Part shown: positions 10,911 through 30,134 of the stretch, in pieces | Position numbering within the stretch: position 1 is the stretch's first letter | Layout of the letters: each line of letters starts with the position of its first letter | Virus record (IMG/VR): IMGVR_UViG_3300032167_000002 | Location: 88,286-152,285 of that record | DNA: 64,000 nucleotides | From: a virus | Lineage: Duplodnaviria > Heunggongvirae > Uroviricota > Caudoviricetes | Strand: one strand, 5' to 3' | Notes under the pieces: model-generated | The model's database searches: none | What the model was told of the DNA's origin: nothing | What the model saw: only the letters and a program-made list of their open reading frames with translations | Position numbers and translations under genes: made by a program

Positions 10911-12392
10911 TTGGCAAATTATGTAAAATTTATGCGTGGTACTCCAAAAGCCTATGAAATGCTTTTAGCCAGTCCAGAGAAACCAAATGTTGATACTCTG
11001 TATTTTATTTCCGAAGCAGATTCAACTAATGCGGTTTTATATTTGGGTGAAAAGCTAATTGCGGGCGGAGGGGGAGCCGCAGGTAAAATTAGTTTAAGTG
11101 AATTAACTGATATTGCTTTAAGTACAGATTTAGCTGATAAGTCTATTTTAGTATATGATACTGCTTCTGGTAAATGGGTTGATTCTACATTAGAACAAGC
11201 TATTTCTGTTTTTATCGGTGCTAGTAAAGATGCCGCAGGTACAGCTGGACTTGTTCCTGCTCCTGGATATGGAGAAACCAATAAGTTTTTACGTAGTGAC
11301 GGCACTTGGGTATCTATTGACAGTTCAGAAGCAACTATTATCACTATTGAAAATGAAGATAGTGAAGTCATGCATCAAGAGTTAATTGACCAAACCACAC
11401 AAGGATGGTTGCCATGTGCTGGTGATATTATCATTATTAAAGATATTATTATCAATGATAAATGGCAATATACTTCTTATGTATATAATGGTTCTACATG
11501 GGCAGCCATGGATGGAAACTATAATGCTGAAAATGTGTATTTTGATTCTGATTTCACATTTACAACTCCAGTTGGTACAGTCACTATTCCTTCTACTGGT
11601 AGTAAAGTAGTGGATGCCGCAGGAATGAATATTAAGGATTTCTTAGCAAGTATTTTTGCAGAAGAACAAAATCCTACTACGACAAAACCCTCTATTGCTT
11701 TCACTAAACCTTCTAGTGATGCTTCTTATGAAGTTGGAACTAAAGTAACTCCAGAATATGCATTAAGTTTCAATAGCGGCTCTTATACTTATAATACAAG
11801 CACTGGTGTTACTGCTACTGGATGGAATGTTAGTGATGGAACAACCACTCGTACTACTCAAAGTGGTACAATGGAAGAAATTCAAGTTATTGATAATATG
11901 AATTATAAAATGACTGCAACAGCTACTTATTCAGATGGTATTATTCCTTCTACCAATTTAGGCAAGGAATATGCTGATGGACAAATTAAAGCTGGAACCA
12001 CCAGTTCTAAAACTTCTAAATCCATTACTGGATATAGACAATGTTTCGCTGGTGGAGATTCTACTGGAAGTGAATTAACTTCTGCTTTTATCCGAGACAA
12101 TTTAGCTGGAAAAGGCAACGGCGCTTCTAATAGAACTATTACTTGGGCCGCAAGTGATTTAGCTGGTATGAAGCGTTATATTATTGCGCTTCCTGTGAGC
12201 GGTGGTAAGAGCGTTACATCTGCAATTATTACTTCAAGTATGAATGCAGATGCTACTGCAGATTATGTAAAACAAACCGCAACTGTTGAGGTTGAAGGTG
12301 CAAATGGATATACTGCAGTCGATTATAATATTTGGATTTATGCACCTGCTTCTATTGCAAGTACAGAAGTGCATAGTGTTACAATTGGATAA
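10911..12392 (+). CDS. Tail fibre/structural protein (493 aa) with no amber codons. Contains the FLRSDGTWVSI motif common in phage fibre proteins.
   Basis: Intact ORF with RBS AAAGGAGAG and TAA stop. Confidence 0.6.
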   Translation: MANYVKFMRGTPKAYEMLLASPEKPNVDTLYFISEADSTNAVLYLGEKLIAGGGGAAGKISLSELTDIALSTDLADKSILVYDTASGKWVDSTLEQAISVFIGASKDAAGTAGLVPAPGYGETNKFLRSDGTWVSIDSSEATIITIENEDSEVMHQELIDQTTQGWLPCAGDIIIIKDIIINDKWQYTSYVYNGSTWAAMDGNYNAENVYFDSDFTFTTPVGTVTIPSTGSKVVDAAGMNIKDFLASIFAEEQNPTTTKPSIAFTKPSSDASYEVGTKVTPEYALSFNSGSYTYNTSTGVTATGWNVSDGTTTRTTQSGTMEEIQVIDNMNYKMTATATYSDGIIPSTNLGKEYADGQIKAGTTSSKTSKSITGYRQCFAGGDSTGSELTSAFIRDNLAGKGNGASNRTITWAASDLAGMKRYIIALPVSGGKSVTSAIITSSMNADATADYVKQTATVEVEGANGYTAVDYNIWIYAPASIASTEVHSVTIG

Positions 12393-13941: not shown

Positions 13942-15663
13942 ATGGCAGATACTAATGTTATCACTATTGCTGATAATTCTCAGATTAAGTTTTTACATGG
14001 TTTACAAACCGCATTAGATGCTAAGAGAACCGCCCGTTCTGGCGAAAGCGGCACTTTCTACTTAACCAATGATACTCATAGATTATATGTTGGTTTAAGT
14101 GATGGTAGCATCGAAGCTGTTAATGAAGGTATTACTACTTACGCTACCGTGGAGGTCTTACCAACTGCAACTGCTTTAAATGCTGGTCAATTCGTTTATA
14201 TTACAGCTGATTCTATTTTAGCTGTTTCCAATGGTCAAAATTGGGTTCAAATTAATGCCAATACAGATACCAATTATACTTATGGCGGTCTAGTCACAGG
14301 AGAGCAGACAGGAACTGTTACTGTAACAACTACTTTAACAGAAATTGGTGAAGGTAATAGAAAACCTTCTTTCGCTTTCTCTTTAACTGGTAAAAATGGT
14401 ATTACTATTGTTGAAGGTACAACAGATGGTACTATTGAAGTATATGGTACTAAATTAGCCAGCGAAAATATGGCTCAAGATAATGCTGCAAAGATTAAGT
14501 TAGTTAATGAAGCTGGCGTACAGCAAAGTGCAGTTGTTATTCAGGGTGGTACCAATGTTACTGTTAGCGAAGATAATGGCGTAATTGGAATCACTGCTGC
14601 TGACACTAAATTAGATGGTAACACTCATACAGCAACCGCTCATGCTTGGGACCCCAAAGATGAGACCAATAAGCCTGGTGGATTTACTGTAACAGTTAAA
14701 GATACTGCTAATAGAAGTTCTAGTAGCACATTTAATCCTGCAATTAAATATGGTGGTAGTGGCACTTCTACTGCTAAGTTCAGCAATGGTACTGCGACTT
14801 TAGATGTATATACTAAAGCAGAAGTTGATGCTTTAAGAGCAGACTTTGACGCAATGGAATATCAGGGTGTTGTTAATAGCATTCCTACTGGTTCCATTAA
14901 GAAAGGTTATACTTATAAAGTTGGTCAAGCTTTTGATGTAACAGTTAAAACCGATACTGGTACTGAAGAGATTACAGTACAGCCTGGTGACTTATTGATT
15001 GCAGAAGGCACTGAAGGTACCAATGGATTCTTAACTACTGTACAATGGGGTTATGTTCCTTCTGGTAATGAAGATACCACTTACTCTGTTGGTTTATTGA
15101 CTCCAGCAAATGGTGGTGGTATTCAATTATTAGAAAAGAAAACTGGCACTACTACTGGTACTAATGCTGGCTCTATTTCTGTATTAAGTGGAAATTGTAT
15201 TACTGTAAGTCCAAGTTCAGACACTGCTTCTAAGGCAATGTCACTGACTATTAATCATAATGCGGTAAGTACTACTGACCCAGCTAGAGATACCACTGGT
15301 ACTTTAAATAATCCTACTCTTGGCACCGATTATGTTGCTAAGTCAGAAGATATTGTTATTATTGATGCCTCTAAGGGCGAAAATGGTATTGATAGAGACA
15401 ATTATGGTCATGTACAGAAAGTATATACCAAGACCGTTAAAGTCTATGATACTAATGCTCGTTTAACTGGAATGACTTCCAGTGTATCTAGTGACACTGC
15501 TAAGACTAAGGCTACTGTTTCTATTAAGGGTCAAGTAACTGGCTCTAAGAATCAAAAGAGTGAGCAAACTGCTACTTTCTATGTTGAGTCTACTCATAGT
15601 AACTTGCAGGTAAGTAGCTCTGGCTCTAGCGTTCAGATGTCTCTGGTTTGGGGCACTTTCTAA
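13942..15663 (+). CDS. Virion structural protein (573 aa, Thr/Gly-rich) with no amber codons, followed by a strong terminator. Possibly an abundant tail or fibre component.
   Basis: Intact ORF with RBS AAGAAAGGGGAAAA and TAA stop. Terminator hairpin about 70 nt downstream. Confidence 0.55.
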   Translation: MADTNVITIADNSQIKFLHGLQTALDAKRTARSGESGTFYLTNDTHRLYVGLSDGSIEAVNEGITTYATVEVLPTATALNAGQFVYITADSILAVSNGQNWVQINANTDTNYTYGGLVTGEQTGTVTVTTTLTEIGEGNRKPSFAFSLTGKNGITIVEGTTDGTIEVYGTKLASENMAQDNAAKIKLVNEAGVQQSAVVIQGGTNVTVSEDNGVIGITAADTKLDGNTHTATAHAWDPKDETNKPGGFTVTVKDTANRSSSSTFNPAIKYGGSGTSTAKFSNGTATLDVYTKAEVDALRADFDAMEYQGVVNSIPTGSIKKGYTYKVGQAFDVTVKTDTGTEEITVQPGDLLIAEGTEGTNGFLTTVQWGYVPSGNEDTTYSVGLLTPANGGGIQLLEKKTGTTTGTNAGSISVLSGNCITVSPSSDTASKAMSLTINHNAVSTTDPARDTTGTLNNPTLGTDYVAKSEDIVIIDASKGENGIDRDNYGHVQKVYTKTVKVYDTNARLTGMTSSVSSDTAKTKATVSIKGQVTGSKNQKSEQTATFYVESTHSNLQVSSSGSSVQMSLVWGTF

Positions 15664-15728
15664 TTTGAGGACAAAAGGTATTAAGAAGATTATTTCGATT
15701 TTTAATTAAAAATAGAGGATAATCTAAT

Positions 15729-15767
15729 AGGTGGGAAGAAGATTATTCTTCTCACCTATTTTTTTGT
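15729..15767 (+). terminator. Rho-independent terminator: AGGTGGGAAGAAG / CTTCTCACCT stem followed by a T-run.
   Basis: Inverted repeat followed by ATTTTTTTG, read directly. Confidence 0.6.
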
Positions 15768-15796
15768 TTATAAAGGAAAGAAAGGAGTTTAAATAA

Positions 15797-18700
15797 ATGA
15801 GTGAAAATTATGGCGTAAAATTTATTCCCGTCCGTGGTTATGACAGTAAGATTCAGCGTGCTGAAGTAAAAGATGGATGGATTTATTTTGCTACTGACTC
15901 AGGTAAGATTTATGTCGATAGCCAGGGCCAAAGAACTATTATGGGTTCTGCGGGCGCCGCAATTTACTATGGTGAAGTTGAGAAACCAGAAGTAAATGAA
16001 GATACGGGCTATGCAACACTTCCTAAGAGCGCTGTTAAAGGCGACCCTAAGAAAGGCGACCTAATCTTAAATTCCGATGGCGGTTTCTATAAAGTTGAAT
16101 TAATTGGTGAAGAAAACTATACTTGTGAATTGCTTTCTATTAGCGGCACAGGCGGTGGTCCCGGTGTTTCTACTACTACTCGTCCATCAATCACTTTAAC
16201 TCTTGACAATACTAACTTCATTAATGGTCAAGAGGCTTATTTCCATATCCATGCAGAGTCTGCTTTAGAGGCAGATGGTGTGACTCCTGTAGATACTACA
16301 TTGAATGTTGTATATTCTTTGGGTACTCGTATTTCCGACGAGGTTATTGATAACTATACTACTCAAACTCGTACTTATAAGACTGGTGAATCTGACTATG
16401 AGGGCGTTCCCGGTATTATTGATGACTATATTGAAATTGGTTCTCTATTAAGAGAGTCCTCTTCTAGTGTGTTGTCTGTTTATGTTCAAGGTGCAAATCA
16501 TGACGAAAAGAGCCGTACTAGAACTGTTGACTTATCAACTTCTGCATTAAAGTTATCTCAAGTTTCCGGTTATAACCCAGCTACTAGATATCCTACTTCT
16601 GGATTCCAAATTAAGTGCGGAGTTGTTGGTTCTTTATCTAAGGTCTTAGATTTCTACTATGATGATATGAATACTCCTGCTGAAACTCGTGTTATCGAGG
16701 CTAACGTAGCTAATAGTACTCAGACATTTACAGTAGGTACAGACAAAGCAACTCACGGATATCACACTGTTCGTATTGAGCTGTGGCAGAACACTGGTAC
16801 TTCCAGTAATCCTAAGAGAGGCTTAGGAGTTGCTCCACTACAGTACGAAATCGCAGTTATTGAAACAAGTAACGCAAATGCTAAACCAGTAATTTGGTTG
16901 GGTGATTATAAGGCTGAATATTATAATTACGATACTATTCAAATCCCATTCTTAGTATGGGACCCCGCAAATACCAACTCTACTAAAGTGCATTTGTATA
17001 AAAATAATATTGAATTAGAAAGCTCTCCTCGTGAAGTTAAGGATTTCTCTAAATTTGATTATTGGGAAATCGCTGATGCAGAAATGAATGCTTTAAATAG
17101 CTATCAAATTTCTTGCGGCGAGACTGATGAAAAATTTGTAAAGAGAGAAATTGAGTTTAAGGTTGTTAAAGACCCTAATCGTGATATGACTGTTGAGCAA
17201 GCAGGATTGTTATTAGACTTCTCTGCTACTGGACGTTCTAATTCTGAGTCCGCAGCTAAGAGACAGTTGTGGAGCTACACTTTGAATGGTGAAAAGAAAA
17301 ACGCCATTTTCGAAAACTTTAACTGGTATAATAACGGTTGGATGATGGATTCAAGCATTAACCAGTCTTGTTTAAGAATTAGTAATGGTGCTAGATTAAC
17401 TATTCCATTCCAGCAGATGGTATTTGCTGCCGGTGTTAGTGGACAAGAGTCTCACACTGTTGAAATGCAATTCCGCATTCGCAATGTTCAAAAATATGAT
17501 AATTTAATTACCAATATTACTCGTTATCAAGGTGACGGTGTTTGGTATGAAGCTTTTAAAGCTCAAAAAGATACTGGCTATTCTAACTATGATGCTTACT
17601 TACAAGCAACTTTAGACCCAGACACTTATGATAATTTAAAATTCCAAACTGTTGAAAAGAATATTAACATTACTAATGTTGCCGCAGGTCTATATGATTA
17701 TGATGCAACCAATGTTAAAGCTACTGGTTTCTGCGTAGGCACTCAGGACGCTTTCTTCTCAAACGGTGAAAATACTGTTAACGTAAACTTCGTTGAAGAT
17801 GAGTTAATTAATTTAAGTTTTGTATATCAAGATAGCTTAAAATATTTATATATCTATATCAATGGTGTTATTACTGGTGTTATTAAGTCTACTGACCCTG
17901 ACGCCTTTACAATTAATAGTGGAAACTTTGTTTTTGATTCTAGTAATTGTGACATTGATTTATATAAATTGAGAATTTATAATTCTGATTTAAATGTTAA
18001 TCAGATTGTACAAAATTTCTCTGTTGACCGCAAGAACGTAAAAATCTTTGACCAAAGTAATGCTTATGCATTGGCTGAGGAGAATAATAACTTGAAAGAG
18101 TTCCAGTTCTCTTATGAAGCTATGCTAAGATATAATGAAGCTCATCCTAATGAACCTTTGATGCCTTATATCATTTACGATACTGGTAATGCTACTTTAC
18201 CATATAGTAAAGACGATACTAAATACATTAGTGTTGAATTTGTTAATACCAATTTGGAAAGAGCATATGCTAATGGTGAATTAGAGACTTTGGCTCGTGC
18301 CGATGGCTTAATCGCAGAAGGCGAAACTGATAGTGATAAAATTAAAGAAGGCGTTCGCTTGTACTACAAGCATCATTGCCCATCTTGGATTTCCACTATG
18401 ACTTCTGGAGATAAGGTTGAATTTGCTGTTCAGGGTACTTCTTCTGAGTTCTATCCTCGTCGTAATTACAAGATTAAGACTAAGGTAGAAGGAGAATTTA
18501 ACTGGAAACCAATCGCAGACTTTACCGATAAGGAGAAGGCTGAATTAAAACCAGAAGAGCTTGAAAAATTAAATGCTGAGAGCGGTTTATATATGGAAGA
18601 AGATTCTTTAAATATCTTCTTAAACCGTGGACCTTATGCTGAAGTTTTCGTTTCTGATAAAGCTAAGTTAGCACAAGATAGTAAATATCTTGGACATGAA

Positions 18701-21700
18701 GAGTGTCGTTGTGCTGATGGTTGGTATATGAATAACTATACTAACGGAACTGATAGATGGACTATGAAAGTTGACTATATGGAATCTTCTGGTTCTTATA
18801 ATGCAGGTTTCGCATCTATGGTTGGTAATGGTTATACTAAGCATCCTTTACAAGACTATTTAGCTTTATTAAATAATACCAATAAATTGGAACCTGTTGT
18901 TGATAGCTCTGTAATTAAGGGTATTCAATGGGGCGATTATCGTACTTCTCTATTGGGCTTCCCAGTTATGGCTTTCCAAAAGACTGGTTCTGGTGATAAT
19001 GCTAAGTACACTTTCATCGGTTTTTATCGTATGCTATTGGATAAGAGCTCTACTCAGGTCTTAGGATTTAAACCTAGTAAGAAAGTTACTAATAAGTTAT
19101 TCCCTAAGGGTTTAAATGATGAAGGTAAAATGGAATATAAGGCAGTACGAGACGTAGCAGAATGTTGGGAGTTCTCTAACAATGCTCGTGGTTATTGCTC
19201 TTATCGTGACCCATGGAGCCGTGTTGAATTAAGTTTCACACCTCCTACTAATTCCACTGTATCTAATGGTGGTTACAATGCTAATGAAGCTCCTGTTGTG
19301 GCTAATAGCTTTGAATATCGCTATCACAGCAAGGATGATTATATTGATATTCTTTACAACTTTAAGCAAGCTACTCAAGGTGAACTTGATGAAGTTGCTG
19401 AAGAGTTAGGAACTGGTACAATTCCTAAGGGCGATTTAGAGGCCGGTGCTAAGGCATTGCTATCTACTCATACTAACTGGGAAAAAGTATGTAAATGGTT
19501 GTGGAGTACTAATCTTGATGCAGTTGTTTCTCAAGGTACTTACTCTAAAGTTCCTGTCGGTGATACCGCATATGAGCCTGGTGTTTACTATGTAGTTGAT
19601 GGTGATTCTTACGCTATTAGTAATGCCGACTTTGATGAAAACACTACCTACTATGTAAAGAGTGAAGTCAACTATGATGTTATCTCTTTAACTGCAGAGA
19701 CTTATATTTCTGGTAAATATTACATCTTAAATGCTGATGGTGAATATGTAATTGATGCAAGCACTTTTGATGCAAATAAGATTTATTATGAGCAGGTTAT
19801 TGAAGACCGCTACATTCCAGTTAATGTATGTCCTGCTGAGTATGTATATGTAAAAGGTAAGTTCTATGTATTAACTGCTGGTGGAAACACTGTAAGCACT
19901 ACTGATGATGTTTATGCATTATCTAATGAAGAATTTGCTGGTGGTACTACTTACTACGAATTTAAAGATGATACTCTAGACACTCTAAATTCTCGTTTTG
20001 ACTTACTGATTGCTCCAGTAGATATTGAGAATGCTACTTATGATGCTAATACTCAGTATTATACTTGGCATGGTATGGACTATGATATGAACGACGCTGC
20101 TAATGGTGTTGTTATTAACCCAGGTCATCCAACCGGTGCAGTCCGCGCGGTCGAAACTCCTTCTCAAGAGGATTGGGCTAAGGGATTATATTATGTAGCA
20201 GCTCCAAAAGAATATGCTGGTAAGGTTTATACTCACGATACTAAAGAATATCGTGCTGCTAAATTTACTAATGAATTTGAAGACCACTTCGACCCTGAGT
20301 ACGTTGCTACTTACTTCGTAATGACTGAAGTTATGGAGTTATACGACTCTCGTGGTAAGAACTGTATGATGGCCTCTTGGGGTCCTCATGAAGCTGGTGG
20401 AGAGTACATCTGGTATCCAATCTTCTATGATATTGATACTCAGTTAGGTATTAACAATACTGGTATTCCTTCATTCGAATTCAATGTTGATGCTACTGAA
20501 GCAGGTAACTTCTCTACTTCTGATAGTATCTTGTGGAACAACTTCTATAAGTTCTTTAAAGACACTTGGATTGTTCCTAAATATAGAAACTTAAGAGGTA
20601 ATGATACTCCTAAGTTTGCTAAATTATTAAATGCAGACGGAACTAGTAAAGCTCCTTTACAGTCTGTTGATTATATTGAAAAGTGGTATACTTTTAATCC
20701 TGATGCAACTAATAATATTGCTTGTGAAGGCGAGCGTCCATTATTAGCTACTAATTTGGATATGTACTTTAAGTATATTACTATTTGTAACCCCAAAGCA
20801 AAAGAAGAGGGCGTTGCTCACTTGGGCGGCGAAGGTTCTGGTGGTGCGTTCGCTGAACCAGACACCGGCACTTACTTCTATGCTTTACAAGGTGACCGTT
20901 CTCAATCTCGTCAGCAGTTCGTTGGAAATCGTCTTGAGTACATTGACTCTTGGTTGACCCAAGGTAACTATGCTCGTGGTGGTGCGAACCGTCTATGGGG
21001 TCGTATTTCTGCTAACAACAGAAGTGACCTTGACTCTGATATTACTGATGTTCACTCTGATAAATGGACCAATAGCGTTGATGACCCATATTGGGTAAAC
21101 AATGTACCTTTTGGAACCAAGACTCACGAGTTTGACTCTGAATATTGGATTGAACCTACTCCAATTCGAAGCGCATATGTTACTGCTGGTGATGACAGTA
21201 TGAACTATCCTTCTAAGAAATATGATGGTATCCATAAGATGCAATTCGTATTAAATGAATTGGAAAATGGTATTAAAAATAGTGACAACTATCCTGAACA
21301 GTTGTTATATATTTATGGTACTAACCAAATGTCTGATTTCGGTGACTTAAGTAAGATGTATTGGACTGAGTTTAAACTTGAGGGTAAGGCTGATAAGCTA
21401 ACTCGCTTGAAGCTTGGTCATGATGGTACTACCATTGACTATAAAGATAGTAATGCAAGTACTAAGACTGAAATTGGTTGGTATAATAAGAAGTTAAATG
21501 GTATTACAGTACCTACTTCACTACCTCTATTAAAAGAAGTTAACTTCTGTAATATTGGTCTAGTAAATGAAACTGCTCTTGATTTTAGCTCTTCTGAAAA
21601 GATGGAAAACTTCAGAGCTACTGGTGCAAGTAACTTAACTTCTGTTACATTTGCAGATGGTGTTGCGTTAAATACTTTGTATTTGCCTGCATCCGTTGGT

Positions 21701-23848
21701 TCTTTGGCCTTAACTCAAGCTAACTTGTTAACTGAATTAATTGGCCATGATGAAGACCATGCATATGAAATTCCCACTTTAAATGTTACTACCGATGAAT
21801 TAGAAGCAAATCCTGGATTATACTTAGAAGGTTTCTTCGAGGGTAGTTCCAAGATGAATACAGTTAAATTTATTGGCGGTAAATTAGGTTATAATAGTTA
21901 CATCATTCTAAAGCAATTGTATACTTTAAATAATAATGCTGGTAATGCCAATGTAACCATGACTGATGTTGAATGGTGTCCTTATACTCATTTAACTGAA
22001 GGTGACGTATTTGATGCTTCTAAGAAGTATTACATTGATAATGGTCACTATGGATTTACTCTGTATAATCCTGATGGTTATGTCTATAATGAAAAGCAGT
22101 TCAATATTGATGTATTGAGTGGTGGCTTGTATCGTGACGATGGACATGGCGGCCGCACTGAGGCTGGCGAATTTGCAGCAGACATTACTAATGTTGCCGA
22201 TGATGCAATTACTATGTTAACCAATTTGTATAGTAATCCTCGCTTCAAGGATGCTAGTGGTCTAAATAGACCTAATATTACTGGTGTAATTTATATCAAT
22301 AATACTACTCCTATTGAAGAAAGTTCTATTCAGGATACTTTACAGATGTATTATCCTAACTTAACATTCTTCTTTGCTAACGTTACTCCTGCATACTCTG
22401 CTAAATTCGTTTTAGTAGATAAAGATACTGGTGCAGAAGGATTCGTTGATTACTTAAGTTCTGATGGATATGGACCTAGTGTTCAGAAGATTAGTCAAGA
22501 AGCTATGGCTGGGGATTCCACTTTGTGGTTTACTAACCCATATAGCTTGTATAAAGTAGAAAGAGCCCACTGGGATTTCTATGGTTGGTCTACTTCTTCC
22601 AATGCCGCAGACAAGAGTAAAATTATTTATGGTGATATCAACGATGATATGACTGACGCAGAAAAGATTGCTGCTCATAATGTAGCTTGGATGGCTGCAA
22701 AATCTAAGCTGTTCGCAGCTGATAAGTTTGACTATCCTTTCTATGCTATTTTAACTGAGCATGAATACGAAGCAGTCTTCTTAGATTACTTCGACCCAAC
22801 ATATAGACAAGTAGCTAAGGTTGCTTACAGTGATAAGGGTTCTTATATGAATGATAATGTTCCCGCACCTGTAAACCTAACTGCCGATGATTTGTATATG
22901 CGTAATGCATTTAAGGGCTGGACTAATGACATTGAAAAGGCTAAAGTTATTTACGGTGAAAATGTTCCTGATGAAGAACTTCCTTTAATCAATGTTTCTA
23001 TGTATCCTGCAACCAGAGATTATACATTCTATGCGGTATATAAGAAGGAAAGTGTTTTTGCAAATGTAACTGACCCAGTGAAATACTTTAATTACACTGT
23101 AGGTTCTAGTTATACTGACGCATATGGTGAAGGCGGAACTTATGATTATTCTAATGGATACATTTTATCTTTGAAGCCTGAATATAAGAATGGCTTCTTG
23201 AAAGGTAAGATTACTTTACCAACTCGAACTCCTTCTGGCATTGATGGTGTAACCGCTGGACAACCAATCTATGAATATCGTGGATTCACTGAAGATGAGT
23301 ATATTACTCATATCTTCTTTGATAGTGCAGCTACTTGTGAAGTTCGTATTATTTACAACAATTTCTTTGCTCGTATGAAAGCTTTGAAATATGTTGACTT
23401 CCCCGCAATGAAGAAGTTGAGAGTTATTAATAATGGCGCTTTTGAAAGCTGTCCTTACTTTAGTAACTTTACATTCTGCGACCCATTAGTATTGATTCAA
23501 ACTTACGCTTTCTCTGCTACTGGTAACTTAGCTGAACCTGTTGATTGCGTATTGAATCCAATGCTAAGAGATATTTTAGGTGGAGCAATTTCTTGGGGTA
23601 TTGCATTGAAAACCTTAACTATTGGTGCAGAAAATTCTCCTTCTCAGTTAACTCAAGAAAAATGGTTAAAGAACAAGAGAGATGTCGCTTGTATCGAAAA
23701 TGGTCAAGGCTCTAGACCTTCTGTCGTAACTATTTATTGTCCATCTGGTATGGAAACCACTTGGAATGATTGGATTGTTGGTGGAGCTAATGGTCAACCA
23801 TTCGTAACCGTTGACAGTATTGATAATATCTCTATTGTCGGAAAATAA
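15797..23848 (+). CDS. Giant virion/tail-associated protein (2683 aa), Asn/Tyr/Thr/Asp-rich and predicted beta-rich, containing no TAG codons.
   Basis: Single uninterrupted ORF. RBS GAAAGGAG 9 nt upstream. Double stop TAATAA. Confidence 0.7.
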   Translation: MSENYGVKFIPVRGYDSKIQRAEVKDGWIYFATDSGKIYVDSQGQRTIMGSAGAAIYYGEVEKPEVNEDTGYATLPKSAVKGDPKKGDLILNSDGGFYKVELIGEENYTCELLSISGTGGGPGVSTTTRPSITLTLDNTNFINGQEAYFHIHAESALEADGVTPVDTTLNVVYSLGTRISDEVIDNYTTQTRTYKTGESDYEGVPGIIDDYIEIGSLLRESSSSVLSVYVQGANHDEKSRTRTVDLSTSALKLSQVSGYNPATRYPTSGFQIKCGVVGSLSKVLDFYYDDMNTPAETRVIEANVANSTQTFTVGTDKATHGYHTVRIELWQNTGTSSNPKRGLGVAPLQYEIAVIETSNANAKPVIWLGDYKAEYYNYDTIQIPFLVWDPANTNSTKVHLYKNNIELESSPREVKDFSKFDYWEIADAEMNALNSYQISCGETDEKFVKREIEFKVVKDPNRDMTVEQAGLLLDFSATGRSNSESAAKRQLWSYTLNGEKKNAIFENFNWYNNGWMMDSSINQSCLRISNGARLTIPFQQMVFAAGVSGQESHTVEMQFRIRNVQKYDNLITNITRYQGDGVWYEAFKAQKDTGYSNYDAYLQATLDPDTYDNLKFQTVEKNINITNVAAGLYDYDATNVKATGFCVGTQDAFFSNGENTVNVNFVEDELINLSFVYQDSLKYLYIYINGVITGVIKSTDPDAFTINSGNFVFDSSNCDIDLYKLRIYNSDLNVNQIVQNFSVDRKNVKIFDQSNAYALAEENNNLKEFQFSYEAMLRYNEAHPNEPLMPYIIYDTGNATLPYSKDDTKYISVEFVNTNLERAYANGELETLARADGLIAEGETDSDKIKEGVRLYYKHHCPSWISTMTSGDKVEFAVQGTSSEFYPRRNYKIKTKVEGEFNWKPIADFTDKEKAELKPEELEKLNAESGLYMEEDSLNIFLNRGPYAEVFVSDKAKLAQDSKYLGHEECRCADGWYMNNYTNGTDRWTMKVDYMESSGSYNAGFASMVGNGYTKHPLQDYLALLNNTNKLEPVVDSSVIKGIQWGDYRTSLLGFPVMAFQKTGSGDNAKYTFIGFYRMLLDKSSTQVLGFKPSKKVTNKLFPKGLNDEGKMEYKAVRDVAECWEFSNNARGYCSYRDPWSRVELSFTPPTNSTVSNGGYNANEAPVVANSFEYRYHSKDDYIDILYNFKQATQGELDEVAEELGTGTIPKGDLEAGAKALLSTHTNWEKVCKWLWSTNLDAVVSQGTYSKVPVGDTAYEPGVYYVVDGDSYAISNADFDENTTYYVKSEVNYDVISLTAETYISGKYYILNADGEYVIDASTFDANKIYYEQVIEDRYIPVNVCPAEYVYVKGKFYVLTAGGNTVSTTDDVYALSNEEFAGGTTYYEFKDDTLDTLNSRFDLLIAPVDIENATYDANTQYYTWHGMDYDMNDAANGVVINPGHPTGAVRAVETPSQEDWAKGLYYVAAPKEYAGKVYTHDTKEYRAAKFTNEFEDHFDPEYVATYFVMTEVMELYDSRGKNCMMASWGPHEAGGEYIWYPIFYDIDTQLGINNTGIPSFEFNVDATEAGNFSTSDSILWNNFYKFFKDTWIVPKYRNLRGNDTPKFAKLLNADGTSKAPLQSVDYIEKWYTFNPDATNNIACEGERPLLATNLDMYFKYITICNPKAKEEGVAHLGGEGSGGAFAEPDTGTYFYALQGDRSQSRQQFVGNRLEYIDSWLTQGNYARGGANRLWGRISANNRSDLDSDITDVHSDKWTNSVDDPYWVNNVPFGTKTHEFDSEYWIEPTPIRSAYVTAGDDSMNYPSKKYDGIHKMQFVLNELENGIKNSDNYPEQLLYIYGTNQMSDFGDLSKMYWTEFKLEGKADKLTRLKLGHDGTTIDYKDSNASTKTEIGWYNKKLNGITVPTSLPLLKEVNFCNIGLVNETALDFSSSEKMENFRATGASNLTSVTFADGVALNTLYLPASVGSLALTQANLLTELIGHDEDHAYEIPTLNVTTDELEANPGLYLEGFFEGSSKMNTVKFIGGKLGYNSYIILKQLYTLNNNAGNANVTMTDVEWCPYTHLTEGDVFDASKKYYIDNGHYGFTLYNPDGYVYNEKQFNIDVLSGGLYRDDGHGGRTEAGEFAADITNVADDAITMLTNLYSNPRFKDASGLNRPNITGVIYINNTTPIEESSIQDTLQMYYPNLTFFFANVTPAYSAKFVLVDKDTGAEGFVDYLSSDGYGPSVQKISQEAMAGDSTLWFTNPYSLYKVERAHWDFYGWSTSSNAADKSKIIYGDINDDMTDAEKIAAHNVAWMAAKSKLFAADKFDYPFYAILTEHEYEAVFLDYFDPTYRQVAKVAYSDKGSYMNDNVPAPVNLTADDLYMRNAFKGWTNDIEKAKVIYGENVPDEELPLINVSMYPATRDYTFYAVYKKESVFANVTDPVKYFNYTVGSSYTDAYGEGGTYDYSNGYILSLKPEYKNGFLKGKITLPTRTPSGIDGVTAGQPIYEYRGFTEDEYITHIFFDSAATCEVRIIYNNFFARMKALKYVDFPAMKKLRVINNGAFESCPYFSNFTFCDPLVLIQTYAFSATGNLAEPVDCVLNPMLRDILGGAISWGIALKTLTIGAENSPSQLTQEKWLKNKRDVACIENGQGSRPSVVTIYCPSGMETTWNDWIVGGANGQPFVTVDSIDNISIVGK

Positions 23849-23864
23849 TAAAGGAGGATAAAAA

Positions 23865-24074
23865 ATGACTAAACAAGTTTTATATACTTACTTAGGTACT
23901 AATGGTACTATTTGTTCTCCTGTGCATTTAGAAGATGTTTATTATATTAGAAAATATCGTCTAACTGCAGACCAGGGTAAGCGTTTGACTTGCGATGGCA
24001 AGACTTACCATGATACCGTAGTAATTCCAGAAGCTGACCTTCCTCTTTGGAAAGAAGTTGCTGGACAGAAATAA
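23865..24074 (+). CDS. Small hypothetical protein (69 aa).
   Basis: RBS AAAGGAGGA and TAA stop. Confidence 0.5.
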   Translation: MTKQVLYTYLGTNGTICSPVHLEDVYYIRKYRLTADQGKRLTCDGKTYHDTVVIPEADLPLWKEVAGQK

Positions 24075-24107
24075 TTTAATTATTTAATTAAATTATCAAA
24101 ATAATAG

Positions 24108-24130
24108 AGGGAGAGAGTAATCTCTCCCTC
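24108..24130 (+). other. Perfect 10-bp stem hairpin (GAGGGAGAGA-GTAA-TCTCTCCCTC) without a T-tract. Possible transcript-stability or attenuator element between genes.
   Basis: Read directly from the sequence. Confidence 0.4.
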
Positions 24131-24160
24131 GCAAATTTAAAGAAAGGATGATATTTAGAA

Positions 24161-26092
24161 ATGATTACTTCTATTAAAAATGCAGATTATTCATTCCTTT
24201 TTGCAGATGCTGGAAAGCTACTGTTAGAGCTGGATAGCCAGGGAAAATTGAAGACTCCTCTGCAGCAAGCTGAAAAAGACGAATTAAATCAATTCGATCG
24301 TTTCTCTTCTTTGGAGAAGTATTTTACCCGTTTGGGAGACTTGGTCGATAATGCTGATAACCCAATTAAATATTTAATGTTGCCTTTAGATGAACCTTGT
24401 TTAGAGGTAAATGCTAATACTAGAATTATTACTATTCCTGATGGTTTCAAGAAATACGGCGCTGGCGTTCAAGGTGACGTAATTGCCGAGACTTTGTTCT
24501 TACGCATTGACCGCTTCTTCGATTCTATGGACTTCATGATGACTGAGCCTTATATTCAGTGGAAGCTGAAAAATGGTGAGCAGGGCGCAACTCCTATTCC
24601 TTATATGGATTATGAGAGCGAGCATCATTTAGGTAAGTTGATTTTGGTATGGCCTTTAACTGGTGCAGTTACCGCACAAGAAGGTCCTGTTGAATTCTCT
24701 TTACGTTTCTTAAAGAGAGATGGCGACAAGGTTGTTTATAGCTGGAACTCTGTTCCTGCAACTATCACTATTAAGCAGGCATTAAAGCCCGTAGTTGATT
24801 ATGTTGAATATGATGATGCTGCTTCTTTATTTAAGCTAGCAATTGAAAATAGTGAGCATACTTCTGATAGTGATACTGTAGACCCACCTTCCTTCGATGC
24901 TCCTGGCTATTCTATTGGTTTTGAAAACAATGTTATTCATTTGGATAAGAATAACGCTGTAACTTTGGCTGGTCAAGCTTGGGTTGAAGGTCAGGGACAT
25001 TTGTCTTATGATTGGGAGTACAGTAACTTAACTGGCAATATTGTCGTTGCTGGTATCAATGTTCAAGGTGCTGAAACTACAGCTTTCAAGGAAACTGAAG
25101 ATGATGCTCCAGTTGAGTATAAGGTTTACTATGTACAAAACGCAAGTGCTACTCCTTATGGATATGAGGAATTGCCTCATAATCAGTTCGAAACCACTAA
25201 GGAAGAGAATATCGCTATTTATGAGCGTTATGCCATTTATAGAATTACTGAAAGCATTAGTCCTGCTGCTGATGCTCCTGGTGTTGTAACTGGTACTTAC
25301 AAGCTAATTGCTAAACATAAGCTAGGATTCCCTTCTGCTTCTAAGTCTTTGAGTGTTACTATTCCTGGTCCCGAGGTTTTGGAATTCGTTTCTGGTGATA
25401 AAGACGCTGATGAAAAAGCTTTAGGATTGCCTGCAAATGGTATTTTACTAGATGAAAATGATGGCTTAACATTGAATGTTGAAGTTAAGAATGATGGTGC
25501 GCCTGCTGCAGCTTATCAGTCTATGACTTATTTGTGGAAGAAGAATGTTAACGATGACAAAGAAGATGGCATGGTTGATGTTATTTCTCACACTTATGAT
25601 AATAATACCGAGGGTAAGATTGGTAAAGTCACTGATGATTTGACTTTAGAGACTGCTGAACCCGGCTGGTATAAGGTTTATGTTACTTCTATGTTGAACC
25701 GCGATGATATTGCTATTGAGAGTAATGTTGCTCGTGTGACTAGAGCTCCAGAAGCTCCAGTCTTGAAATATCCTGCTTCTTCTGAATATTCTAAGCAGCT
25801 TGAGGCTCAAGCATTCCCCAACCGCTTAGTTGAAATTGTGATTGAGCATGAGGCTTTTGATGAGCCTGTAGCTTTACACTCTGATAGACTAATCTATGAG
25901 TGGTACGATGAAGATAAGCTATTGACTCAGGACACTCCTGGTGTTAGCTTTGATGGCAATAAGCTATTGATTGATGGTAGTAACATTCATGGTGACGTTA
26001 TGTTCATCCATTGCTATGTAACTAATGAATTAAATGGTGCCTACTCCGCAAGAGAAGATGCTCACTCTGGTAACTTTGTTGTAAGTTTCTAA
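24161..26092 (+). CDS. Baseplate/tail structural protein (643 aa) with no amber codons. Its N-terminal domain is paralogous to the next gene (RIDRFFDSMDFMM versus KVDRFFDYMDL).
   Basis: Intact ORF with RBS AAAGAAAGGATG and TAATAA stop. Confidence 0.55.
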   Translation: MITSIKNADYSFLFADAGKLLLELDSQGKLKTPLQQAEKDELNQFDRFSSLEKYFTRLGDLVDNADNPIKYLMLPLDEPCLEVNANTRIITIPDGFKKYGAGVQGDVIAETLFLRIDRFFDSMDFMMTEPYIQWKLKNGEQGATPIPYMDYESEHHLGKLILVWPLTGAVTAQEGPVEFSLRFLKRDGDKVVYSWNSVPATITIKQALKPVVDYVEYDDAASLFKLAIENSEHTSDSDTVDPPSFDAPGYSIGFENNVIHLDKNNAVTLAGQAWVEGQGHLSYDWEYSNLTGNIVVAGINVQGAETTAFKETEDDAPVEYKVYYVQNASATPYGYEELPHNQFETTKEENIAIYERYAIYRITESISPAADAPGVVTGTYKLIAKHKLGFPSASKSLSVTIPGPEVLEFVSGDKDADEKALGLPANGILLDENDGLTLNVEVKNDGAPAAAYQSMTYLWKKNVNDDKEDGMVDVISHTYDNNTEGKIGKVTDDLTLETAEPGWYKVYVTSMLNRDDIAIESNVARVTRAPEAPVLKYPASSEYSKQLEAQAFPNRLVEIVIEHEAFDEPVALHSDRLIYEWYDEDKLLTQDTPGVSFDGNKLLIDGSNIHGDVMFIHCYVTNELNGAYSAREDAHSGNFVVSF

Positions 26093-26113
26093 TAACTTGA
26101 AAGGAGAGGTAAA

Positions 26114-26701
26114 ATGATTATTTCAACCGAAGAATATTATAAGTATCTTGCTTATATTCAATCAAACAATCGGCCAACAATTGCTATTTTACCTTCGTCT
26201 GAAAAAGTCTACAATATTGACTTAAAAACTCGTCAAATTGAAACGCCAGAGTATCTGAGTGTTGAACATGACCATAAATCTGAAACGGTCTATTTTAAAG
26301 TAGACCGTTTCTTTGATTATATGGACTTGTCACAAACAGTATGCATCGTTCAATATGTAACCGCAGATAATAAGGCTCGCATTTATGCAGTACCTTTTTA
26401 TGATGTTACTTCTTATGCTGACGAGGAAAAAATGTTGATTCCTTGGTGTATTGATGGCGGTGCAACTGCGGTCGCAGGTACAGTCCAATATTCAATTCGA
26501 TTCTACAAGGTTGATGAAGTAGGACAGCAATTTATTTATAACTTAAACACTCGTCCAACAAAGAGTAAAGTATTATATGGTATGGATGTTCAAAAAATTA
26601 ATCATGATTATGATTTAGCTCCTACTGTATATGATGAAATTATCCAAAAGTTGGATGAATTTAGTGAAGCTTTAGGTAGCTTCTGGGAAGAGTTATATTG
26701 A
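26114..26701 (+). CDS. Baseplate/tail protein (195 aa), paralogous to the N-terminus of 24161..26092.
   Basis: Intact ORF with RBS AAAGGAGAGG and TGA stop followed by a terminator. Confidence 0.55.
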   Translation: MIISTEEYYKYLAYIQSNNRPTIAILPSSEKVYNIDLKTRQIETPEYLSVEHDHKSETVYFKVDRFFDYMDLSQTVCIVQYVTADNKARIYAVPFYDVTSYADEEKMLIPWCIDGGATAVAGTVQYSIRFYKVDEVGQQFIYNLNTRPTKSKVLYGMDVQKINHDYDLAPTVYDEIIQKLDEFSEALGSFWEELY

Positions 26702-26709
26702 TAGTTTTA

Positions 26710-26741
26710 GGGAGAGATTTTATATCTCTCCCTTTTTTTTA
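26710..26741 (+). terminator. Rho-independent terminator (GGGAGAGAT...ATCTCTCCC plus T8).
   Basis: Hairpin plus TTTTTTTT, read directly. Confidence 0.65.
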
Positions 26742-27716: not shown

Positions 27717-30134
27717 ATGAGTTTACAAGTATGGTTACCATTAAATAATCATATTAATAACCAAGGATTAAATACTATTCGTTTTAAAAGCTCAAATGTT
27801 TCTTACACTCAAGGTAAGTTGGGCTATTGCGCTAGTGGCACCATTCAAGGAACTGCCGCAGAATTAAATTCAACAGATGGTTTTTGTTGTAGTTTCTGGT
27901 GGAATATTGCCAATGGAGATAGCTATAATATTAAATTTCCTATTACTAACACAGGTATTGATGATATTTTTAATATGGCAAAAATGGATTATACTTCCAA
28001 TTATGCTATTAAATTACATTGCAATAATAACAAACCTCAAATGATTTGGATTTATGATACTCGTTCTACTTCTGGAGTATGGGAGCTTGGAACCTGGAAT
28101 CATTATGTTATTAATGTTAATAATGGAGATTTCGGTGTATAGGTAAAAGTATTTGTAAATGGAGCTTTAAAACATCAATACAATAGCGCTGATTATAATT
28201 TTACATTACGCCCTGGTACCATTAGTATTAGTGGAACAGCAAAAATGAATGATTTTAGATTATATGACCATCCACTTTGTCTAAAAGAAATTGATGAATT
28301 AAGTAGAGGTCTAATGCTTCATTATCCTTTACGAGATAGTACTTTACAAAGCACAACTAATTATTTATTGTATCCAACCCCTGGTAGTAGAGTAAGTGCT
28401 GGATGGGACTCTTCTTTACATCCAAATGCTATTAATGTATCTGGATTTACTGCAGGGTATAACAGTGGTGTTGATTCACCAACAATTGGTTATCATGCCT
28501 ATTGGAATGTTATAGATGACGTGCCTACAATGGTGTTTCCAAATTTAAATTCAGCATATAATTATAAAGGCCGTTGGTTAGGAATTTCTTCATGGGGTAC
28601 TGTTAATTTAGCGTAGGCGATTGGTAAAGGTAATAAATATACTATTTCTTTTGAAGCTAAAAGTGATATAAAAGGTAAAACAGTACAGTTTGGTTTATAT
28701 TATAGAAAAAATGGAGCAACTTCAAATAACTTCCATGATGGACAACATTAGTAGAGCTTAACTACAACTTGGAAAAAATATTCATACACTTGGACTCTTG
28801 GACAAGACGGTGATAGTTCTAATGTGGGAGCAGTATATATGTATGGTCATTATGGTATTGAAGGAACTGCTTATGTAAGAAATATTTAGTTAGAAATTAA
28901 TGACCATGCAACAGATTATGTTTCTGGTAGTAGAGAAGCTTCTAAGGTCTATGACTGTTCGGGTTTTGGACATCACGGTCGTGTAGTAGGAGCAGTATCG
29001 ATGATGCCAGATTCTAGTCGCAATAAATATTCTGCATACATCACAGATGGTCGTAGTAATTATATTGCAAGTGATACTATGATATTTCCAAAAGATAGTA
29101 TAACTATGAGTTGCTGGGTTAAAGGTAGTAACGCAGGATATAGTAATTATCATATTCCATTAAGCTTTGGTAGTGCTAATTATGAATTTTCATTGGAGGG
29201 AACGACTGGTAAATTCCGCGCTGGATATGTTATTAGTGGAACTCGCTAGTGCGTAACAACAAATGGTACTACTATTGATGGGAAATGGCATATGATTACA
29301 TCTACATTTGATGGAACAACTATTCGTAGATATGTTGATGGAATACCTTTAACATCTACTGCGGCCGCAGGTACTTTATCCGGTGGTACTGGTAATTTAT
29401 TGGTTGGTAATTATAATGGTACTACATATGGTAATAGTAAATTATATACTAGTGATGTTAGAATTTATGCTACAGCACTAGATGAACTATAGATTAAAGA
29501 ATTATATTTAAATGGTGCCACTGTAGATAATGGTGGTAATGTTTATGCTTATGAGTTCACTGAAGAGGGCGACAACTCAGTCTTTAAAGAAGGAGTAGTT
29601 GACTTTGAGAATTTTATTGAGTATAATATTAATAAGATAATGAGATATGATGGTGATTTGTGGGTACAAATTTTACATCATAATAATAGAGCTGGTACTA
29701 AGTATTTTACACCATCTAATGCCGCCAATCATACAGAAGAAGACTTATATAGTAGGCTTTATTTAACTGAATAGTTAAGAGGAGCTGATGGTGCATTTGA
29801 ATTTTTAGTTTTGCAACCTGATGATGATGCAGGTACTGTATATAGATGGATTCAAACAAATAATCCAAACAATACAACTTCTGTAACAGGATTTAAAAAC
29901 ATTTCTAATATGAGTGGAGGATTAGTAAAATGCTCGGGTAATACTCATTGGGCAATTTCAACCTCTACTGGAAATTGGTGGAATGCAGTGGGATGCTGGA
30001 CCGCTTATAATGGAGGCATTCCTGGATTTGGTAAAAAAACTATTAAAGGGTCTTTAGATGTGTATGTAAAGTTAGATAAAAGAACAAGCTTTTTAATCGA
30101 CTCTATTGAAACTCAAAACTATTATGAATTTTAA
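27717..30134 (+). CDS. Large tail-fibre/receptor-binding protein with LamG-like (concanavalin-type lectin) domains, about 805 aa. Eight in-frame TAG at 28140, 28614, 28749, 28752 (adjacent TAG-TAG), 28887, 29247, 29490 and 29772. Paralogue of 32793..35219.
   Basis: Frame-3 ORFs 27717..28142, 28245..28616, 29001..29249, 29292..29492 and 29811..30134 are joined through TAG only. The 28617..29000 and 29493..29810 gaps were verified codon by codon. LamG signature DFRLYDHPLCLKEIDEL / DVRIYATALDEL. TAA stop at 30132. Confidence 0.65.

Follow-up and report, generated by a model that had tools for sequence, protein, structure and literature searches.

A giant phage protein with LamG-like, CotH kinase-like and leucine-rich repeat modules, encoded within a TAG-free gene module

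The window analyzed here, a 64,000-nucleotide stretch of a tailed-phage genome, contains on its plus strand a genuine open reading frame encoding 2683 amino acids (15797..23848) that starts with ATG, ends with TAA and is preceded by an AAGGAG Shine-Dalgarno sequence 8-9 nt 5' of the start codon. The gene lies among fibre-like genes; LamG fibre proteins and a PHROG tail protein are encoded close by, and in one relative a Gp34_trimer fibre gene is located near the giant homologue. PHROG searches with ten neighbours returned mostly families of unknown function, NCBIfam and Pfam searches with four neighbours in the same module returned nothing useful, and megablast of the giant gene against 50,697 phage records yielded zero matches. 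The features surrounding the gene are as follows.

13942..26701, plus strand: TAG-free, syntenic module of five genes (573, giant, 69, 643 and 195 aa)
15726..15760, plus strand: terminator-like hairpin separating the 573-aa gene from the giant gene, with a 15-bp stem and a T run after it
23865..24074, plus strand: 69-aa open reading frame directly 3' of the giant gene, with a strong AAGGAGG ribosome-binding site

The order of the five genes is retained in relatives down to 30% identity, and all ten of the relatives examined have an open reading frame of 65-75 aa at the position of the 69-aa gene. Two further terminator-like hairpins are found at 24107-24130 and 26709-26733.

An earlier note made from the sequence had described the giant gene as free of amber codons, and this is correct: it contains no in-frame TAG, as compared to 39 and 42 in the other two frames. 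The remaining plus-strand late genes contain 51 TAG in 10433 codons, a frequency at which ~13 would be expected in the giant gene and at which finding none has a probability of ~2e-6, so the absence is non-random. It is not, however, the only long late gene lacking TAG, as had been claimed; the genes at 10932-12392 (486 aa), 13942-15663 (573 aa), 24161-26092 (643 aa) and 26114-26701 (195 aa) are TAG-free as well. The module also differs in codon usage from the recoded late genes that flank it, as its GC3 is 0.22-0.31 and CAG is used, whereas the flanking genes have a GC3 of 0.13-0.20 and nearly lack CAG. In two close relatives the giant gene contains 1 and 3 TAG codons, and in five more distant recoded relatives it contains 13-25. 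Because the distant recoded homologues carry this many, the amber-free state stems from the history of the lineage and is not something that the protein requires. The five-gene module as a whole shows it, in one sub-clade whose ancestor probably imported the module from a relative using the standard code. A somewhat unlikely alternative is that timing of expression, as opposed to module origin, explains the pattern, translation of the giant protein having to precede the TAG suppressor or do without it. Bracketing of the module by terminator-like hairpins (15726-15760, 24107-24130 and 26709-26733), a codon usage (CAG, higher GC3) that resembles the TAG-free early minus-strand genes, and TAG depletion that persists in relatives at ~80% nucleotide identity are all consistent with such timing, but the 13-25 TAG codons in five recoded relatives argue against any general need for standard-code translation, and a mere 36 nt separate the first hairpin from the giant ATG. 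A tRNA scan of the window detected no suppressor tRNA. The TAG-poor module is a clean natural case of codon-reassignment mosaicism inside one late operon, and it could be used to study the exchange of fibre cassettes between recoded and standard-code phages.

The giant protein is modular. Its composition (T 7.6, N 7.4, G 7.4, D 7.2, A 7.1 and Y 7.0%) agrees with the earlier description of an N/Y/T/D-rich polypeptide, and on reading the sequence neither terminus shows a signal peptide or a cell-wall anchor. Its predicted beta-rich character is also borne out, as the modelled N-terminal 470 residues are nearly all beta strand. The proposed repetition of YY-containing strands holds only locally; the 13 YY pairs match the 13.3 expected from composition, and 7 of them are clustered between residues 1264 and 1465, within the repeat insert of the kinase domain. 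Structure prediction by segments followed by fold searches, an approach suggested in the earlier note, revealed Ig-like domains and a kinase fold. From the N-terminus the protein consists of a beta domain, a Gly hinge, three Ig-like domains, a LamG-like domain, a CotH domain, an LRR-like region and a BspA-type LRR, which map to the gene as listed below.

15797..16141, plus strand: N-terminal beta-rich domain (aa 1-115), conserved family-wide
16142..16174, plus strand: Gly-rich hinge (aa 116-126); G119, G120 and G121 invariant or nearly so, pLDDT <50
16175..17176, plus strand: three tandem Ig-like (PKD/FN3/CARDB-like) beta-sandwich domains (aa ~127-460)
17174..18031, plus strand: putative LamG/concanavalin-like lectin domain (aa ~460-745), assigned via homologues
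18359..21031, plus strand: CotH-like atypical protein-kinase fold with large insertions (aa ~855-1745)
18431..18478, plus strand: N-lobe motif QGTSSEFYPRRNYKIK (aa 879-894); Q879, G880, T881, S882, S883, Y886 and N890 invariant
19529..20221, plus strand: variable insert in the kinase domain (aa ~1245-1475), the least conserved interior region
20252..20596, plus strand: catalytic core of the kinase C-lobe (aa 1486-1600), with D1517-S-R-G-K-N1522 and F-Y-D1545-I-D1547-T-Q-L-G1551
21314..22396, plus strand: putative LRR-like region (aa ~1840-2200)
22397..23173, plus strand: variable region (aa ~2201-2459), for which the family consensus shows 'YDFxGW'-type motifs
23174..23845, plus strand: BspA-type LRR C-terminus (aa ~2460-2683), where the protein varies most

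The first 115 residues, presumed to form an attachment domain, contain positions conserved throughout the family (F9, P11, G14, I19, G27, Y30, A32, D34, D41, N92, D94 and G95). This domain has no significant family match or recognisable similarity to known fibre anchors, and a fold search with the N-terminal model returned generic Ig, PKD and FN3 matches only, none of which identified these 115 residues. A candidate anchor motif common to the N-terminal 135 residues and the fibre-like neighbours ('GWIYFATDSGKIYV' versus 'GTFYLTNDTHRLYV') was dropped, as its E-value is 0.77. The LamG-like region aligns colinearly with stretches that Pfam assigns to Laminin_G_3 in Bacillus phage G gp353 and in the Hankyphage target of a diversity-generating retroelement (DGR), and Laminin_G_3 is matched in one family member (E 1.1e-4); the corresponding fragment of the giant protein by itself has no Pfam match. 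Similarly, the LRR-like region has no direct Pfam match in the giant protein, and its assignment stems from residues 1919-1979, which align with the Hankyphage protein, and from Pfam LRR matches at the equivalent place in gp353. The variable region that follows may possibly comprise Listeria-Bacteroides repeat (Flg_new) domains, a weakly supported assignment based on Flg_new matches in single family members. The C-terminus scores 29.3 bits on Pfam LRR_5, above the cut-off, and the family profile matches the BspA-type LRR structures 4fs7 and 4gt6 in the PDB (E 2.7e-33 and 2.4e-29, respectively). It is the candidate receptor-binding end.

The earlier note had seen no recognisable catalytic motif in the protein. 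This is wrong, as a CotH-type kinase signature is present at QGTSSEFYPRRNYKIK, D1517SRGKN1522 and FYD1545ID1547TQLG. The first of these motifs resembles the 'RGNSS..PKKSYKI' motif of the CotH family. An AlphaFold2 model of residues 845-1760 (pLDDT 72, pTM 0.74) has the atypical protein-kinase-like fold of CotH, although it is partly of low confidence, with pLDDT <50 at model residues 673-676 and 704-722, in loops around the catalytic motifs. A fold search with this model returned kinases and also recovered phage G gp353. The insert within the domain is built from 3-4 beta-hairpin repeats of ~45 aa each (Y-x-[PS]-G-x-Y-Y ... F-D-x3-x-Y-Y). At the level of Pfam, against a gathering threshold of 23.8 bits for CotH (PF08757), the middle of the giant protein scores 16.9 bits (E 0.0047) and the fragment containing residues 1488-1604 scores 21.9 bits (E 1.4e-4, profile positions 159-253), both below threshold. 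The profile is matched by 7 of 23 family members (best E 5.5e-6), and gp353 passes it with 60.4 bits, having Laminin_G_3 before and LRR after its CotH domain. The giant protein in turn aligns colinearly with gp353 over residues 1488-1604 (E 6e-24) and with the Hankyphage DGR target (E 4e-14). Searches of PDB sequences with the whole protein, a profile of the kinase region and the C-terminal 925 residues gave no CotH match, and neither hhalign comparison of the family profile with B. cereus CotH nor a local HMM of the catalytic core found anything. Because these comparisons with spore CotH are null, the link to CotH depends on the results of the fold search and of the Pfam profile, together with the bridge through gp353.

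Residue equivalences were set by Pfam coordinates and motif matching, as distinct from structural superposition, and align D1517 with B. cereus D224, the counterpart of B. subtilis D228. More generally, the alignments show D1517-x4-N1522 and D1545-x-D1547 as invariant, and these residues occupy the same Pfam columns as B. cereus D224/N229/D247. The giant protein thus appears to contain the catalytic Asp and Asn of CotH as well as its metal-binding Asp (B. subtilis D251, WDxD-type). In B. subtilis CotH, D228Q and D251A each abolish catalytic activity (PMC7821199). Among 118 homologues, mean identity peaks in this part of the protein (82% over residues 1501-1550 and 73% over residues 1551-1600) and is lowest at the C-terminus, and ~228 of 232 long family members retain a D-S-R-x-K-N ... 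[FY]YDxDT motif. The ATP/metal-binding and catalytic residues are under the strongest purifying selection in the protein; it is the kinase active site, rather than the adhesin parts, that selection preserves most strongly.

These folds and motifs bear on two roles that had been raised earlier and whose only points in favor are the size of the protein and its position among late genes: a tape measure or structural ruler, and a crAss-like virion RNA polymerase. Either is extremely improbable. No PHROG or Pfam tape-measure or polymerase family is matched, and modelling gave globular domains of beta or kinase fold in place of the long, mostly alpha-helical structure of a tape measure. As the earlier note had stated, DxDGD and HExxH are absent from the sequence. 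We rejected the polymerase on the lack of DxDGD and the return of kinases by the fold search, and an HExxH protease on the lack of its motif; the sole DxDxD is DLDSD at residue 1744, in the low-confidence tail of the model.

We consider it fairly probable that the giant protein is a modular adhesin associated with the virion, in type a tail fibre or a baseplate appendage, that is built around a LamG - CotH-kinase - LRR core. The host-adhesion or tail-fibre role proposed earlier fits its Ig-like, LamG-like and LRR modules, its fibre-like neighbours and its Hankyphage homologue, and these would place it in the virion. In such an arrangement the conserved N-terminal beta domain and Gly hinge would anchor the protein to the tail, the three Ig-like domains and the LamG-like lectin domain would form a stalk able to bind glycans, and the variable BspA-type LRR C-terminus would make specific contact with the host surface. 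The CotH-type atypical Ser/Thr-kinase domain would be positioned between the stalk and the LRR end. Because its catalytic residues are the most strongly conserved, we infer that this domain is an active phosphotransferase. Phosphotransfer would most likely occur in the ATP-rich cytoplasm during assembly, with the protein itself or its partner fibre proteins as substrate; CotH offers the analogy, as it patterns the spore coat by phosphorylating coat proteins. A component of the host envelope, modified at adsorption, is a less likely target. It counts against the overall proposal that an extracellular kinase would lack a dependable supply of ATP. We put forward only tentatively, as a possibility, that the giant fibre is a kinase-armed receptor-binding protein, in which an active, tail-displayed CotH-type kinase phosphorylates either virion partners, in a maturation step patterning the assembly of fibres, or a component of the host envelope at adsorption.

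It is unlikely, though worth weighing, that the protein is purely an adhesin whose CotH-fold domain serves as a non-catalytic ligand-binding or scaffold module, with the motif retained for stability or to bind a small ligand. Every other recognisable module is a binding module, the kinase domain contains large insertions that include the repeat insert, and virion proteins would work outside the cell, where ATP is presumably scarce. There is also precedent in the cell-surface CotH proteins of Mucorales, which are described as invasins. Pseudokinases usually lose their catalytic residues, however, whereas here no positions in the protein are more conserved than the catalytic Asp/Asn/Asp and the N-lobe motif, and the catalytic residues persist in nearly all long family members, in gp353 and in Hankyphage.

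Less probable still is an effector that is not a fibre, carried in or on the virion or made late, whose kinase acts on host proteins and manipulates the physiology of the host. Manipulation of host signaling was proposed for the CotH-like targets of PC_00012 by Roux et al. (bioRxiv 10.1101/2020.04.01.020958), and other phage kinases act on host proteins (PMC8008677). Yet the gene is located inside the fibre cluster and not among early genes, more than 1700 residues of Ig, LamG and LRR modules with a hypervariable C-terminus are hard to explain in the cytoplasm, and the end that is diversified in DGR-bearing relatives is the classic receptor-binding position.

Returning to the adhesin with a CotH-type kinase domain, the protein is a member of a large family of phage proteins of ~2000-2900 aa that have the LamG - CotH-kinase - LRR core. 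The family profile finds 1718 cluster representatives, which span Bacteroides, Bacillus and recoded gut phages. The core occurs here where no DGR was noticed, in a very large family that crosses genetic codes and includes groups of phages unrelated to one another. An active kinase would place phosphorylation alongside glycan depolymerisation among the enzymatic activities of receptor-binding appendages; if the kinase-armed reading is true, the 1718 representatives would make phosphorylation an unrecognised, widespread step in tail assembly or host recognition.

Giant phage proteins containing CotH have been flagged as odd DGR targets, and called unstudied, by Wu 2018, Roux 2020/21 and Benler 2021. 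Those with CotH and Laminin_G_3 form category f1 of Wu et al. 2018 (PMC5758913), and the CotH-like DGR targets form PC_00012 of Roux et al. The 2245-aa 'tail fibre' DGR target of Hankyphage p00 (Bacteroides) has its LamG, CotH-like and LRR-like regions in the same order as the giant protein, and the two have in common the motif D-x-R-x-K-N ... YDxDTQ(L/M)G, a position in the tail cluster and a size of ~2000-2700 aa; with more than 2000 residues and colinear Laminin_G_3 and CotH-like regions, the giant protein is a LamG-CotH tail protein of this kind. The Hankyphage protein bears a tail-fibre annotation, and mass spectrometry detected it in PEG-precipitated particles; this is a crude sample, and the homologue is very distant from the giant protein. 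Identity between the two is only ~25% and patchy. They differ at the C-terminus, which is a BspA-type LRR in the giant protein and a DGR-diversified C-type lectin in the Hankyphage target. On inspection, no DGR (reverse transcriptase, TR/VR) was noticed near the giant gene, which is followed by the 69-aa open reading frame and fibre-like genes. Moreover, the YY-hairpin insert in the kinase domain is an addition unlike the Hankyphage target, and the host of the giant's phage is probably Gram-positive, whereas that of Hankyphage is Bacteroides.

Bacillus phage G gp353, on which we found nothing in the literature, has Laminin_G_3, CotH and LRR like the giant protein and is 36% identical to it over the catalytic core. 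Phage G is a jumbo myovirus that uses the standard code, and its uncharacterised gp353 is shorter (~2055 aa), with a CotH domain of ~340 aa that is without most of the insertions, as compared to ~890 aa in the giant protein. Bacillus spore CotH (PDB 5jd9 and 5jda) has the catalytic Asp, the Asn at +5 and the DxD metal motif in the same Pfam columns, but identity is 8% and there is no profile-to-sequence signal. Spore CotH is also a stand-alone mother-cell enzyme of ~360 aa, whereas the kinase fold of the giant protein is split by ~550 aa of insertions within a 2683-aa modular protein. Finally, the C-terminal ~220 residues match the BspA-like/LRR_5 surface proteins of gut bacteria (4fs7, 4gt6 and PcpA 4cp6), with the LRR_5 repeat forming only the terminal module of a protein encoded in a phage structural cluster. 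What is new here is a variant of the previously flagged, uncharacterised giant CotH phage proteins.

The open reading frame at 15797..23848 on the + strand runs from ATG to TAA and encodes 2683 aa, exactly as the earlier note described it. Searched as a whole, this giant protein has a BspA-type LRR at aa 2517-2578 as its sole Pfam match, matches one PHROGs family of unknown function, and gave no match in a PDB sequence search. A homology search recovered 120 unnamed proteins, nearly all of them full-length (~2100-2870 aa), with identities down to ~28%. With E <= 1e-3 as the limit, a profile built from the middle region matches 1718 cluster representatives, of which 426 remain at E <= 1e-30; among the matches listed most are 2000-2900 aa long. 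Across 118 homologues, conservation peaks at aa 1501-1600 (82% and 73% identity) and reaches its minimum in the last 500 aa. Besides the kinase described below, the following regions are delineated, the first three from a model of aa 1-470 (pLDDT 84):

Regions of the giant protein
aa 10-115: beta domain
aa 116-126: disordered Gly hinge
after the Gly hinge: three beta-sandwich domains
aa ~460-745: Laminin_G_3-like (colinear alignment with the Pfam Laminin_G_3 regions of Bacillus phage G gp353 and the 2245-aa Hankyphage protein)
aa ~1245-1475: variable insert in the kinase fold, with three to four YY-hairpin repeats of ~45 aa
aa ~1840-2200: LRR-like in appearance (alignment to the Hankyphage protein, and the LRR matches of gp353)
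C-terminal ~220 aa: BspA-type LRR (family profile against PDB 4fs7, E 2.7e-33)

The middle region of the giant protein is a CotH-type kinase, its fold broken up by variable insertions. Residues 845-1760 were chosen for modelling because reading of the sequence suggested CotH-like motifs, and the resulting model (23-sequence alignment) has a pLDDT of 72 and a pTM of 0.74. Foldseek comparison with viral models retrieved gp353 together with phage proteins named 'spore coat protein-like', 'CotH kinase protein' and 'internalin-like'. The Pfam CotH score lies just below the 23.8-bit cut-off (16.9 bits for the whole protein; for aa 1488-1604 alone, 21.9 bits with E 1.4e-4), and 7 of 23 family members match Pfam CotH. 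The query core matches gp353 at E 6e-24, and gp353 itself passes Pfam CotH with 60.4 bits. To place the catalytic residues, the Bacillus cereus CotH sequence was recovered via a PDB search and equivalent fragments were compared by their Pfam CotH coordinates:

Fragments aligned to the Pfam CotH profile
B. cereus CotH, fragment 2-101: profile 160-264
gp353, fragment 1-108: profile 158-258
giant protein, fragment 2-110: profile 159-253

From these coordinates, D1517 and N1522 would share columns with B. cereus D224 and N229, and D1545-x-D1547 with D247-x-D249. The B. subtilis counterparts are D228 and D251, and the D228Q and D251A mutants of B. subtilis CotH are catalytically inactive (PMC7821199). 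We infer this mapping from the Pfam profile and motifs rather than from a printed superposition, because direct profile-to-sequence comparisons with spore CotH gave no match. D1517, N1522, D1545 and D1547 are invariant in the alignments of the giant protein, the motif D-S-R-x-K-N ... [FY]YDxDT occurs in ~228 of 232 long family members, and the N-lobe motif QGTSSEFYPRRNYKIK shows the same degree of conservation; beside this conservation, a CotH fold that is non-catalytic and used for binding seems unlikely. The presence of a CotH-type catalytic motif overturns the earlier view that the protein lacks any recognisable one. The YY dipeptides that had been noticed show no overall enrichment (13 seen, 13.3 expected) and are clustered, 7 of 13 lying within aa 1264-1465. 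Tape-measure and RNAP readings are contradicted by the lack of DxDGD and by the beta-sandwich and kinase-fold models.

The giant gene sits amid fibre-like genes, including a PHROG 'tail protein' and LamG/CBM proteins downstream, and in one relative a Gp34_trimer fibre gene lies near its homologue. The order [~550 aa] - giant - [65-75 aa] - [~640 aa] - [~200 aa] is kept in every relative examined, to 30% identity. Directly after the giant gene, a 69-aa ORF (23865-24074) with a strong AAGGAGG ribosome-binding site has no family match; a 65-75 aa ORF occupies its position in 10/10 relatives examined, and it could encode a fibre chaperone or kinase partner. The 643-aa (24161-26092) and 195-aa (26114-26701) proteins that follow are paralogues with a ~150-aa common domain (29% identity, E 9e-20) containing 'DRFFDxMD'; neither matches a known family, and the pair is kept beside the giant gene in all relatives. 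Terminator-like hairpins occur at 15726-15760, 24107-24130 and 26709-26733; strong hairpins flank the giant gene together with the small ORF after it, and likewise the next gene pair, and the latter two hairpins have the common core AGGGAGAGA...TCTCTCCCT. Strong AAGGAG(G) ribosome-binding sites, along with GH25/CW_7/LysM and CHAP lysins in one relative, point to a Gram-positive host.

Elsewhere among the late genes, two successive fibre cassettes are apparent, each with a ~805-aa LamG-type protein starting MSLxxWLPL (27717-30134 / 32793-35219) and then a Gly/Ser/Thr/Asn-rich fibre protein (31218-32777 / 35239-38766). They look like a duplicated receptor-binding module, and fibre genes of this type vary in number among relatives. 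There is a 26-nt overlap between the large genes at 3715-6678 (987 aa) and 6653-9310 (885 aa); the 885-aa protein matches a PHROG 'tail protein' at its N-terminus and an SbcC-like PHROG in its coiled-coil-like middle.

The phage is TAG-recoded. On the + strand to ~38.8 kb, reading TAG as sense makes most long genes continuous (the summed ORFs grow from 13.5k to 18.8k aa), with 3-9 in-frame TAG in each recoded long gene; CAG is almost absent from the TAG-using late genes (1-38766), as if replaced by TAG. The minus-strand replication genes (41939-64000; NrdD-, DnaE-, RecD- and RecJ-like by sequence reading) are mostly TAG-free with a GC3 of 0.32-0.44, and a few small minus-strand ORFs contain TAG, such as 48309-48878 (4) and 43155-43640 (3). 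GC skew flips sign at ~42 kb, where the convergent gene blocks meet. ARAGORN found no tRNA gene within the window (1-64000), so the expected TAG suppressor tRNA must lie elsewhere in the genome. An identical giant protein is encoded by contigs 104-130 kb long, and one contig listed in the cluster table measures 406 kb.

The giant gene is amber-free, as had been noted, with 0 in-frame TAG and 39 and 42 in its two other frames. The rate in the other + strand late genes (51 TAG in 10433 codons) predicts ~13, giving P(0) ~2e-6, and the absence is thus real rather than chance. It is not the only long late gene of this kind, since four other late genes (486, 573, 643 and 195 aa) lack TAG as well; in the window the TAG-free block is the entire five-gene module (13942-26701). 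Within it CAG is used (9 in the 573-aa gene, 26 in the giant gene, 10 in the 643-aa gene) and GC3 is 0.22-0.31, versus 0.13-0.20 in flanking recoded genes almost without CAG. Related phage loci compare as follows:

In-frame TAG in the giant gene of related loci
L012 (86% aa identity): 1
L013 (76% aa identity): 3
L009 (more distant, recoded): 18
L010 (more distant, recoded): 13
L011 (more distant, recoded): 25
L006 (more distant, recoded): 24
L008 (more distant, recoded): 17
L005 and L007 (standard code): not applicable

The module genes on either side of the giant gene likewise lack TAG in L012 and L013 and have the same GC3 offset. Among the more distant recoded loci, TAG per gene ranges from 0 to 26 in the same syntenic genes, and together with the standard-code loci the relatives form a graded recoding series within one gene order. 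One explanation is timing, with the amber-free module translated before the suppressor acts; its codon usage does resemble that of early genes, but the homologous giant genes of five other recoded relatives carry 13-25 TAG, which shows that the protein does not need to be amber-free and leaves timing a somewhat doubtful account. The simplest reading is that a standard-code relative supplied the sub-clade ancestor with the fibre module, in which TAG has only begun to accumulate.

We consider it fairly probable that the giant protein is an adhesin anchored at the tail, whose variable LRR end would bind the host and whose conserved CotH-type kinase is predicted to be catalytically competent. The most plausible setting for the kinase is the cytoplasm at the time of assembly, where its targets would be the protein itself or its fibre partners, an analogy being the way CotH patterns the spore coat; a host-directed effector kinase, set against this fibre-like gene context, is very unlikely. 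The family is very large, and whether a phage tail appendage carries a built-in kinase is a sharply testable question.

The class of giant LamG-CotH phage proteins is already in the literature but has never been characterised, and the present find is no surprise of principle. Wu et al. (PMC5758913) described DGR targets ~2000 aa long that bear CotH and Laminin_G_3 motifs, PC_00012 of Roux et al. (bioRxiv 10.1101/2020.04.01.020958) carries a CotH-like kinase, and Benler et al. called DGR-target proteins of the CotH kind 'currently unstudied'. In Hankyphage, the region matching the giant protein lies in a 2245-aa ORF that ends with a DGR variable repeat beside a minor tail protein; this ORF was named a tail fibre, and 5 of its peptides were detected in PEG-precipitated particles. 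The giant protein is a variant of the class that is LRR-terminated, heavily insertion-bearing and apparently non-DGR.
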